A DNA stretch of 64,000 nucleotides from NCBI GenBank assembly GCA_951406725.2, contig OX597842.1, positions 11,098,001-11,162,000 of the forward strand, written 5' to 3'. A model generated the notes under the pieces. That model had not been told where the DNA came from. It saw only the letters and a list, made by a program, of their open reading frames with translations, and did not search any database. This stretch comes from Octopus vulgaris. Its lineage: Eukaryota. A program made the translations under genes and the position numbers. Shown here piece by piece: positions 2,534-10,078 of the stretch (positions within the stretch are counted from its first letter, which is position 1; each line of letters begins with the position of its first letter).

Positions 2534-3568
2534 AGAGCAAAACAAAAAACTGTTCTCAGTATTTAAGGAAGCTGACAAATACAAACAAGAAATCATACCA
2601 CCTAATAAACATGAAGAAGAAGAAGAAGATGGAGAAACAACAAAAGCTATAAAACAAATGAAATCCAAACTAAAAAATAGAACAGCAACGAACCATGATA
2701 AAACGATGGCAAGAAAAGCCCCTTCATGGTAAATACTGGACTAAACTAAACGCAAAAGAAATAGACAAAGAAAAATCCCAGCAATGGTTGAGAAGCTCAG
2801 GACTCAAAGCAGAGACAGAGGGATTTTTAATTGCAGCACAAGACCAAAGCCTCCCCACCAGAAATTACCAAAAACATGTAATGAAAAGAAATATTACAAG
2901 TAACTGCAGAATATGTGGAGATGGACAAGAAACAATAAATCATATTATCTCTAGCTGCCCAGTCCTGGCTAAGAAGGAATATATTCACAGACATGACAGA
3001 GTTGGAACCTACATACACTGGAAGCTGTGCCAACATTATGGAATAACAACAGAAAAAAGATGGTATAGGCACACACCAGAAAAGGTCACAGAAAACGAGA
3101 AAGCAAACATACTCTTGTATATGCCAATACACACAGATAGAGAAATTAAGGCCAACAGACCATATATAGTTGTCAGAGATCATGAAGAAAAAAAATGCTT
3201 TCTAATTGATGTATCAATACCGGCAGATGACAACGTGTCTCTAAAAGAAATGGAGAAACTCTCAAAATACAAAGACCTGGAAATAGAGGTAACTAGAATG
3301 TGGAATCTGGAAATAGAAACAATTCCTATCATAGAAGGTGCATTAGGCATGATAAAAAAATATTCAGACAAATACATAACAAAAACATCAGGACTTACAA
3401 ATACATATAACATACAGAAAATTGCACTACTAGACACTGCACACATCCTACGCAGAACACTTTCCATACAATAACCATCAGAGCATCACAACAAATCACA
3501 GCACATACCTAAGGCACACAGAGCTGTGCTCGGTAGTGAAGTGAAAGCACGCTATAAAAATAAAACTA

Positions 3569-5890: not shown

Positions 5891-5914
5891 AATGAACAGT
5901 TTTACATTTCTGCG

Positions 5915-6022
5915 CGAAATATAAACAGTAGCTGCAATACATCGTGAAGTATATTTGCCACCTAAATGGGGCTAACCCTTAAGGGTTGATGCTACTTTAG
6001 CTTGTAGCTACAAGCTAAAGTA
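5915..6022. repeat. Truncated terminal copy of the 6.7-7.36 kb fold-back element, ending in a perfect 30-bp palindrome
   Basis: tataaacagt.gctgca..gaagtatatttgccacctaaatg..aacccttaagggttgatgctact is shared with 6680-6770. Palindrome tactttagcttgtag|ctacaagctaaagta at 5993-6022. Confidence 0.8.
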
Positions 6023-6034
6023 TATATATATATA

Positions 6035-6279
6035 CCGTATTTGACGGCATATTAGACGCACTGGCATATTAGACGCACCCTCATTTCAGCAGGTCAAATT
6101 CAGGAAAAATAGTTTTAAGTGTATTTAAGCATATATTGTTGAAAGCAGTCTAGCAGCAGATTACAAAAGCAGAAAACATTGCTGTATAAAAGCAAGCATA
6201 CAAAAGGAAAGCATGCAAATTACAATAGTAATCATCTTTAATCATCTTTTTAACCATTCGTATTTTAAATTAATAATAC

Positions 6280-6367
<88 letters not shown>

Positions 6368-6570
6368 AGCAATAAAATAATGATGCATGAGTACGGAAAA
6401 TATCATTAAGGCGTTAGCGTAGGTAGAAATACTTATCGTAAGCTAGGTTAGTGAGCGTCTGGGAGAAGATTAGCCTACGGGAGGGTCTTGACTTCGCATA
6501 TTAGACGCAGGGCGATTTTTTTAGCCAAATTTTTTGGAAAAAAGTGCGTCCTATATACCGTCAAATACGG
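6035..6570. mobile_element. MITE of Tc1/mariner superfamily (Tc2/pogo-like ends) in a (TA)n tract
   Basis: 27-bp TIRs ccgtatttgacggcatattagacgcac / gtgcgtcctatataccgtcaaatacgg with TA on both sides; subterminal repeats gcatattagacgca; no ORF. Confidence 0.85.
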
Positions 6571-6668
<98 letters not shown>

Positions 6669-6871
6669 CTCTGAGCGAGGTATAAACAGTCGCTGCATGA
6701 CATGGGGAAGTATATTTTCCACCTAAATGTGGCTAACCCTTAAGGGTTGATGCTACTGTAGCTTGTAGCCTCAGGAAGGCATCTCCTCCAGCTGGCTATT
6801 GAAAAGCTTTGTGTGTCCTATGAATATTTGCAAAGGGTAGTAATTATTCCCATCTCCAGCCTGACGTGATA

Positions 6872-6916
6872 CACACGGACCCGAGTTTCAGGGTATTGAC
6901 CCGTCGTCAGCGAGTG
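6872..6916 (-). ncRNA. Minimal type I hammerhead ribozyme motif
   Basis: Minus strand reads cactcg-CTGACGA-cggg(tcaata)ccct-GAAA-ctcggg-TC-cgtgtg. Confidence 0.65.
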
Positions 6917-7149
6917 ACAACCACCGGTTGTCGATGTGAAGTGGTTGCATCGTATCAGGTCAGGCTGGACATAGGAAGGATGGCTTCCCTTTGCATATTC
7001 TGTAGGTTGTATCCCCAGGAAGGCATCTACACCAGCTGGCTATTGACACTATCTGCGCCCTATCAGTATTTGCAAAGGGAAGCTATGCTTCCCATCTCCA
7101 GCCTGACCTGATACAATGTAACCACTTCACATCGACAACCGGTGGTTCT

Positions 7150-7194
7150 CACACGCTGATGAAGGGTCAATAACCAGAAACTCGGGTCCGTGTG
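7150..7194 (+). ncRNA. Minimal type I hammerhead ribozyme motif
   Basis: cacacg-CTGATGA-agggtcaataacca-GAAA-ctcggg-TC-cgtgtg. Stem I is a perfect 6 bp. The consensus of the two copies gives stem II aggg/ccct. Confidence 0.7.
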
Positions 7195-7419
7195 TATCAC
7201 GTCAGGCAGGAGATAGGAACGATGACTTCTCTTTGCAAATACTGATAGGGCACAGAAAGTGTGTCAATAGCCAGCTGGAGTTGTTTTCCTAGGGATACAA
7301 ACGACAGTAGCATCAACCCTTAAAGATTAACTACATTTAGGTGGCAAATATACTTCACGAAGTTTTACATTTGTCCACTGGTTGTGGACAGCAGCCGCTT
7401 TGATACATGCCCCAATAAA

Positions 7420-7443
7420 ATAACAACAACAACAACAATAATG

Positions 7444-9509: not shown

Positions 9510-10078
9510 CCTTTTTGCTATAAGAACAAGGCCTGAAATGTGGAGGAAGGGGTCTAGTTGTTTACCTCGTCCACAGTGCATAACTGGTACTTTAATTAAT
9601 CGACCCCGAAAGGATAAAAGTAAAGTCGACCAGAGCGAAATTTGAATTCAGAACGAAAAGACAGACGAAATAGCTATTTCTTTACTACCCACAAGGGGCT
9701 AAACACAGAGAGGACAAACAAGGACAGACAAACGGATTAAGTCAATTACATCGACTCCAGGGCATAACTGGTACTTAATTTATCGACCCCGAAAGGATAA
9801 AAGGTAAAGTCGACCTGGGCAAAATTTGAACTCACAACGTAAAGACAGCCGAAATAGCTATTTCTTTACTACCCACAAGGGGCTAAACAAAGAGAGGACA
9901 AACAAGGACAGACAAACGGATTAAGTCGATTATATCGACCCCAGTGCGTAACTGGTACTTTTATTTATCGACCCCGAAAGGATAAAAGGTAAAGTCGACC
10001 TCGGCGGAATTTGAACTCAGAACGTAACGGCAGACGAAATACGGCTACGCATTTCGACCGGCGTGCTAATGTTTCTGC

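Follow-up and report, generated by a model that had tools for sequence, protein, structure and literature searches.

A nested hammerhead palindrome in Octopus vulgaris, the monomer family behind it, and LINEs beside hammerhead cores

The window analysed here, a stretch of 64,000 nucleotides of Octopus vulgaris DNA (contig OX597842.1, positions 11,098,001 to 11,162,000), contains a nested fold-back structure with a hammerhead ribozyme motif on each strand. Is this structure an element in its own right, a viroid-like rod whose transcripts cleave themselves in both polarities, as a first-pass annotation of the sequence had proposed, or did a family of simpler build produce it at one place in the genome?

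Anatomy of the locus and its ribozymes

Inspection of the sequence and self-alignment place the nested palindrome, both hammerhead motifs and a further copy upstream where the first-pass annotation had put them. The inverted arms of about 295 bp are confirmed (6707-7002 against about 7064-7356), with 81% identity over the whole palindrome and 87% over an ungapped stretch of 217 nt, and a fold check gives a minimum free energy of -449.7 kcal/mol (z -29 against 20 shuffles). Two inner hairpins are present as described, but their arms are not of an equal 107 bp or so: the right hairpin pairs 7000-7115 with 7193-7307 over about 116 bp, the left one 6826-6872 with 6952-7006 over about 55 bp. The locus has no coding ORF, as had been noted. 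The upstream copy (5906-6008, 88% identity) had been noted as a third terminal copy; it does exist, and a 12-bp direct repeat (5898-5909 and 7361-7372) encloses both, and it therefore belongs to the same insertion. The true unit is thus larger than had been noted and runs from 5910 to 7360.

We compared the junctions with contigs from three public DNA runs, none of which covers the whole stretch and one of which may be the assembly's own sample. Contig X1 crosses the right inner junction (7052-7196, 0 differences), X4 crosses the central and right junctions (6971-7179, 10 differences), and X2 runs from the right end into the flank (7252-7420, 0 differences); another part of X4 (6876-6995) spans the left junction, but may equally fit the right one. 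With three junctions and the right end found in public DNA contigs, the nested structure is, on present evidence, not an assembly artefact.

The locus consists of four fragments of one 358-nt monomer, M, plus an upstream segment, E. On the monomer ruler the four read -M88-368, +M162-217, -M161-278 and +M88-332 (segments A, B, C and D, strand order -+-+). Behind the left 12-bp target-site duplication (5898-5909, the identical 12-mer recurring at 7361-7372) lies segment E (5910-6008, minus strand, M370 to M265, including the tail end), likely the outer part of the left arm of a first insertion. Its last 14 nt (5995-6008, M265-278) match 7000-7013 at 11 of 14 positions, an overlap from which we infer a second target-site duplication, with 5995-6008 as its probable left copy. 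A perfect 12-nt fold-back of E's end follows (6009-6020, plus strand), and then (TA)n repeats (6021-6034 and 6571-6666) on either side of a MITE (6035-6570). This MITE is unrelated to M, has 27-bp terminal inverted repeats starting CCGTA, contains an internal (TAA)n run and inserted later into the (TA)n; it may be of the Tc2 type.

Segment A (6660-6946, minus strand, M374/368 to M88, 7.7% from the family majority) abuts the (TA)n with its tail end. It is followed at 6947-6951 by a copy of an inversion junction, J, which joins M88 to M161/162 and is the same in both arms. Segment B (6952-7006, plus strand, M162-217) then meets segment C (7000-7115, minus strand, M278 to M161) through a short microhomology, and the two have a rare variant, C168G, in common. 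Junction J itself, crossed by the public contigs, lies at 7116-7119, and segment D (7120-7360, plus strand, M88-332, 7.8% from the majority) ends at the no-tail site, directly before the right 12-bp duplication (7361-7372, copy of 5898-5909). Over the whole locus the segments differ by 8-12% from the family majority and by about 15% from one another.

The two motifs, on the plus strand of segment D at 7150-7194 and on the minus strand of segment A at 6916-6872, are type I hammerheads with CUGANGA, GAAA, ACUCGGGU and GUC. Their cores are intact and both are damaged elsewhere, the plus copy by a G-A mismatch in stem II and the minus copy by a U-U mismatch in stem I, with the G10.1-C11.1 pair absent in both. 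Rfam recognises 0 hammerheads at the gathering threshold in the window, and its 12 matches at E<=10 include no hammerhead. Transcription from either strand reaches the antisense copy before the ribozyme, and forcing the hammerhead fold costs a predicted +69.8 (plus) and +55.6 (minus) kcal/mol, versus about +9.6 in one uninverted monomer. In the isolated motifs, too, the hammerhead is not the lowest-energy fold (+6 to +14 kcal/mol), as expected for a weak helix III, and the locus offers no second ribozyme on the same strand for dimer formation. Tertiary contacts, proteins and co-transcriptional kinetics do not enter into these energies. Because each ribozyme follows its own antisense and the cost of folding is 56-70 kcal/mol, self-cleavage from both strands is unlikely, and we expect the locus to be catalytically silent; its transcript, if made, would be a long double-stranded RNA.

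The monomer family and a younger sister

Alignment of 27 copies shows that the family unit is a simple monomer of 358 nt, which carries a single ribozyme, on one strand only, and whose first 20 or so bases repeat at its end. CUGAUGA lies at M124, GAAA at M145, and cleavage falls after M156. In the 2.8-Gb assembly, rich in microsatellites and with abundant SINEs that resemble those of octopus, a 21-mer near the 3' end of M has 434 exact matches (control 0) and a 21-mer adjoining the ribozyme 101, while a search with the whole structure gave 118 matches (40 of 3800 candidates scored), among which only the locus itself spans the middle. Neither the locus nor the monomer copies contain an ORF, and thus the RT/GIY-YIG ORF of an autonomous Penelope-like element (PLE) is absent.

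How are copies of M usually arranged? In a position-ordered sample of 88 loci, fetched from among the first 100 listed of the 434 matches after removal of two duplicates, 45 lack a strand switch and 43 contain a single one, in every case head to head; none has more. A larger set of 235 distinct insertions other than the locus, partly biased to well-conserved copies, comprises 148 uninverted insertions, 86 with a single head-to-head (-+) inversion, one tail-to-tail and none nested. Two of the counted insertions, L157 and L158 (G000:C2, 151.86 and 151.97 Mb), are an identical inverted insertion found 109 kb apart in opposite orientation, either a segmental duplication or an assembly duplicate.

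The 3' ends of M cluster at M332 and at about M374-379, the tail amounting to about 45 nt. Among the 86 inverted insertions, 51 combine a tail end with an M332 end, three have M332 and two the tail at both ends, and 30 have another end; the outer ends of the locus insertion are likewise the tail and M332. Of the 235 insertions, 17 lie between direct repeats of at least 10 bp, where mismatched flanks give about 4, and all 17 fall in the -+ class. A clean, non-microsatellite target duplication of 10-16 bp accompanies 13 of the 86 inverted insertions, and that of the locus is 12 bp long. The 5' ends of the 235 are scattered and do not concentrate where the ribozyme cuts: the 8-nt bin M153-160 contains 11 of 342 segment starts against a bin average of 7.6, and six other bins contain more. 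M forms partial tandems only, the longest of about 1.6 units, and the locus has no head-to-tail ribozyme array.

This pattern, with 51 insertions having one end of each kind and 5 having like ends, is the one published for PLEs, as far as these are described in the reports cited here: an inverted, 5'-truncated copy with a tail at one end (PMC8557442), a one-sided tail that reflects two internal start sites of the reverse transcriptase (PMC11167929), and opposite-strand hammerheads 100-700 bp apart, already reported (PMC4209133). The insertion signatures thus make it likely that M is mobilised by a PLE reverse transcriptase. The genome carries intact RT+GIY-YIG ORFs, and we searched these elements for a partner. 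No terminal sequence in common with M occurs in 30 GIY-YIG loci, 15 longer loci and 30 loci of a second PLE family (the best 150 of 6136 and of 3345 candidates), and two abundant PLE families with intact ORFs have no sequence in common with M or with its sister family described below. PLE fragments beside six monomer copies (L015, L085, L105, L121, L200, L406) were judged to be chance neighbours, belonging to different families and lying at different distances or within a microsatellite. Of the PLE families encountered, one (L100:2745-5087) is abundant and young, with an intact 781-aa RT+GIY-YIG ORF, and near its 3' end inspection by eye shows a minimal hammerhead whose core is U3-A8 and whose loop is palindromic (L057:about 2790-2830); the second (L419, L420) forms 6.2-kb tandems and its ORFs are about 880-1000 aa long.

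The CUGANGA/GAAA core is kept in the family consensus, its columns being 95-98% conserved, and 112 of 164 decayed copies retain intact cores in a sample biased towards conserved copies. The majority base pair in stem II of M is C-A rather than G-C, and relatives show a double change in this stem, from GGGU/ACCC to AGGU/ACCU. We note that the commonest stem III variants, at columns M150 and M153 (19 and 12 of 198 copies), each make the near-palindrome of stem III perfect, which would suit a dimeric ribozyme, subfamily structure being uncontrolled in this count.

A looser hammerhead pattern has 1514 exact genome matches (control 0). Of 20 loci fetched from the first 100 listed, picked for clustering or odd stems, 15 are related to a monomer of 353 nt with 80% identity to M. 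This sister family (L328 and L329-L336) has the same two ends and inversions as M and forms tandem arrays of up to five units, 99-100% identical, within (TA)n and with a ribozyme in every unit; one array (L328:2274-4076; G000:C1:180105773-180107575) has five units that are 100% identical. In the sister ribozyme the G10.1-C11.1 pair is present, stem II is compensated and the stem III palindrome is perfect, and it scores 32.2 bits on Rfam Hammerhead_1 (RF00163; gathering 34). Judged from these sequences, the sister family is probably still active. Four further hammerhead motifs (L340-L343) have the same stem III, but their stem II is unrelated and they resemble neither M nor the sister; they represent a further family.

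Origin of the nest

The locus is very probably a one-off complex insertion of family M. The family unit, its 3' ends at M332 and about M374-379, the head-to-head inversions, the 10-16 bp duplications and the uniqueness of the junction are all directly seen. In fact, J is found only at the locus, beyond chance: at up to 3 mismatches the genome gives 3 matches, 2 of them the locus itself, and the control also gives 3. The one match elsewhere (G000:C2:28234486, 2 mismatches) is a count equal to that of the control.

Alleles carried by the segments reveal the order of events. Variant C168G, present in B and C, occurs in 1 of 200 other copies, and position 193 (a subfamily allele) is G in B and C and A in A and D; B was therefore copied from C and is not a fold-back of A, and these alleles rule out a simple self-copying of arm A by fold-back. 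Segments A and D carry 20 and 19 differences, of which one is a common allele present in both and none is a private change found in both, so that the duplication preceded decay. The common J, the B/C alleles and the lack of a joint private change in A and D together indicate that the C-J-D unit was copied once, before decay. With E ending at M265 and C beginning at M278, the two can be read as a single arm, M370-161, interrupted by a duplicated 14 bp; E+C-J-D is then a tail/M332 inverted insertion of the ordinary kind. What lies between E and C, namely the fold-back, the (TA)n and A-J-B, most plausibly stems from a second priming into the left arm.

With moderate confidence we regard the locus as a copy of M, now decayed to about 8% from the majority, which a PLE reverse transcriptase mobilised and which became nested through a second priming into its own arm. 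The sequence of events would be as follows: (I) nicks staggered by 12 bp would prime a cDNA at the tail site (E+C, M370 to 161) and another at M332 (D, to M88), and their joining at J would yield the ordinary inverted insertion of the family; (II) more or less simultaneously, a nick would open the left arm at M265-278, and a third cDNA primed at the tail site would shift from its RNA template to the homologous new DNA arm D, pass through J into C to give A-J-B, and be joined by microhomology; (III) the MITE would later insert into the (TA)n; and (IV) neutral decay would follow. The 14-bp overlap of E and C falls within the 10-16 bp range of the family's duplications. However, it has 3 mismatches and could be due to chance (by our estimate, roughly a few percent). 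The move from RNA to DNA is needed because A has the tail sequence M333-374 that D lacks. Clean non-microsatellite duplications, furthermore, occur in just 13 of 86 inverted insertions, and the case for a PLE as mobiliser comes from insertion signatures, none of the autonomous PLEs searched having sequence in common with M or the sister.

A single event involving the same family and the same PLE machinery is a possible but distinctly less probable origin. A parent RNA already bearing J would have been copied into two cDNAs, from the tail and from M332, both passing through J and meeting head to head, with E as an aborted first cDNA. This accounts for the common J, the haplotypes of B/C and A/D and the canonical outer ends, dispenses with the RNA-to-DNA move, and finds some parallel in insertion L033, whose junction M158/M90 is similar, not identical, to J, and in L162, which looks copied from a LINE-interrupted parent. 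Yet the genome search found no J-bearing parent, and the 14-bp overlap of E and C would be a coincidence. Less probable still, and in our view improbable, is an ordinary inverted insertion rearranged later at the DNA level by replication template switching between its inverted arms. Quasi-palindromes favour such switching, and the 12-nt fold-back at 6009-6020 carries E's private change. Against this, A ends at the reverse transcriptase's tail site abutting the (TA)n and reaches beyond E, little time can have elapsed given that A and D have no private changes in common, and three or more switches would be required.

The dedicated, viroid-like rod with both polarities self-cleaving, which the first-pass annotation had put forward as an undescribed system, is largely refuted and very improbable. 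The fold is indeed very stable (z -29) and both catalytic cores are intact, but no other insertion among 235 is nested, J occurs at this locus only, the arms are 15% apart, as between unrelated copies, the antisense precedes each ribozyme at the predicted folding cost given above (+69.8 and +55.6 against +9.6 kcal/mol), and intact cores are frequent in decayed copies anyway (112 of 164, in the biased sample). A rearrangement confined to one locus is also an outcome that the annotation itself had named as refuting its proposal. Just as remote are a MITE that captured a ribozyme, also proposed there, which the inverted terminal arms recall but which is contradicted by arms ending at different monomer positions, by scattered 5' ends and by 148 of 235 copies with no inverted arm, and an artefact of assembly, to which palindromes are prone but which conflicts with arms that differ by 15% and with junctions found in public DNA contigs. 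The family unit and the insertion signature do support the link that the annotation drew between a non-coding hammerhead retroelement and PLEs.

In sum, a known class of element gave rise to the nested rod at a single locus, and on its own the rod matters little. The preferred origin remains the second priming of a PLE-mobilised M copy into its own left arm.

LINEs beside hammerhead cores, and relation to known systems

More novel than the nested rod is the targeting of sites beside hammerheads by LINEs. Ten M insertions follow a LINE 3' end and begin at or shortly past M105, six end exactly at M120, ahead of LINE 5' ends, and two (L045 and L277) show both LINE sides with a 16-bp duplication of M105-120. 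Sequence common to insertions upstream of M105 had been considered as a partner pLTR and proved to be these LINE 3' ends. The LINE/hammerhead loci are L045:286-1475, L277:5842-9284, L298-L327, L348-L377 and L424:3063-8816. The LINEs, which are of L1/Tx1 type, encode an ORF1 with CCHC motifs and an ORF2 with APE, RT and zf-RVT domains (Pfam); the best match among solved structures is LINE-1 ORF2p (E 4e-40), the best named homolog comes from Argonauta hians, and no named Tx1 reference occurs among the protein homologs.

A survey with two LINE 3' parts as queries covered 60 loci, of which 51 have a recognisable end, or 49 without the queries. A strict hammerhead core lies 19-31 nt past the LINE end in 13 of these 49, versus 2 of 278 background words, and a core with one mismatch in 16 of 49 versus 7 of 278. 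By eye, many of the remaining ends show a duplicated target with another LINE 5' end, or degenerate cores, and about a dozen have no such target, so that the specificity of the LINEs is partial. The targeted cores represent several diverged families, one with a U3-A8 core, with patches of likeness to M, and by their sequences are probably one old lineage. The LINEs, ORF1-only derivatives included, stack in tandem at the site. One full-length copy has entered U2 snRNA at its 5' end, where 17 bp are duplicated, and a copy whose 3' end is as in the U2 copy sits before a hammerhead (L423). The LINE is absent from the window's own locus. Elsewhere in the window, a 266-aa open frame (2674-3474, plus strand) resembles by eye the C-terminal end of an RTE/R2-type LINE ORF, and a 184-bp repeat occurs in three copies at 9547-9988.

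We consider it well supported that these LINEs target hammerhead retrozymes. In the accounts of the Tx1 clade cited here, Keno targets U2 snRNA and its relatives have shifted to transposons (PMC4494074, PMC3747384), Tx1L to the piggyBac element Tx1D and Tx1-Mar to Mariner (PMC4494074). Similarly, the octopus LINEs have APE, RT and zf-RVT domains, 16-17 bp duplications, tandem piling at one site and a U2 snRNA copy. Unlike those of Keno, Tx1L and Tx1-Mar as described there, most of their mapped targets are hammerhead retrozymes, entered just 5' of the core; the Tx1 type is assigned here by domains and insertion behaviour. The open literature searched shows no report of a hammerhead target for such LINEs. 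A speculative reading, to which we give rather little weight, is that a Keno-like Tx1 lineage moved from U2 snRNA to hammerhead retrozymes as its main target. It would enter several diverged families in the same orientation, 19-31 nt 5' of the core, would preserve the ribozyme by duplicating the stem I strand, and would putatively rely on the host element's transcription and hammerhead for cutting its own 3' end. If true, the LINE would be a parasite of ribozyme parasites. Target-specific insertion of LINEs beside hammerhead cores would extend the Tx1 list of target classes (snRNA, tRNA, 5S, microsatellites, and DNA and LTR transposons) and provide a natural series of retargeted endonucleases. 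Either family, M or these LINEs, may already be catalogued, for example in Repbase or Dfam.

Among known systems, M does not match a MITE: its ends are asymmetric, its length varies and 148 of 235 copies are uninverted, whereas a MITE has terminal inverted repeats with fixed ends, a fixed duplication of 2-9 bp and a uniform length. Viroids and HDV-like circular RNAs have a rod-like fold, ribozymes in both polarities and a self-complementary replicon. The locus resembles them in its rod-like fold and one hammerhead per strand and differs in that its rod arose from duplicating one sequence, exists as a single decayed genomic copy and has its ribozymes sequestered by antisense.

The EN+ PLEs (Penelope/Poseidon, Neptune, Nematis, Naiad), as described in PMC8557442, PMC11167929 and PMC4209133, have in common with M 5' truncation, partial tandems, an inverted 5'-truncated copy, a tail at one end, an association with (TA)n, a hammerhead and pairs of hammerheads on opposite strands. 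In contrast to what those sources describe, M has no RT/GIY-YIG ORF, a tail of about 45 rather than 30-40 nt, a hammerhead of canonical rather than minimal type and no partner pLTR among the elements searched, and the locus has three strand switches instead of one.

Metazoan non-LTR retrozymes are described as non-coding monomers of 170-400 nt with a type I hammerhead (Cervera and de la Pena 2020, PMC7229834), and according to one proposal derive from PLEs as non-autonomous elements (Li et al., bioRxiv 10.64898/2026.07.22.740005). So far as those accounts go, M matches them in its non-coding monomer of a size within the range (358 nt; sister 353 nt), in its type I hammerhead of canonical size with a short helix III and palindromic loop, and in having no LTR or PBS and, when present, target duplications of more than 4 bp (10-16 bp in M); the sister family also has their tandem arrays with a ribozyme per unit, and fits this class. 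M departs from them in that its copies are mostly 5'-truncated monomers and inversions, the longest of about 1.6 units, and that stem II has a majority C-A instead of G-C, and its two-site, PLE-like tail pattern is not among the retrozyme features described in PMC7229834 or bioRxiv 10.64898/2026.07.22.740005. The lineage of M bears the full PLE insertion signature (two start sites, a one-sided tail, head-to-head inversion and 10-16 bp duplications) and includes an apparently still active member. It thereby lends mechanistic support to the proposal that PLE proteins move animal retrozymes, for which the 353-nt sister would be a compact substrate in the existing in vitro system.
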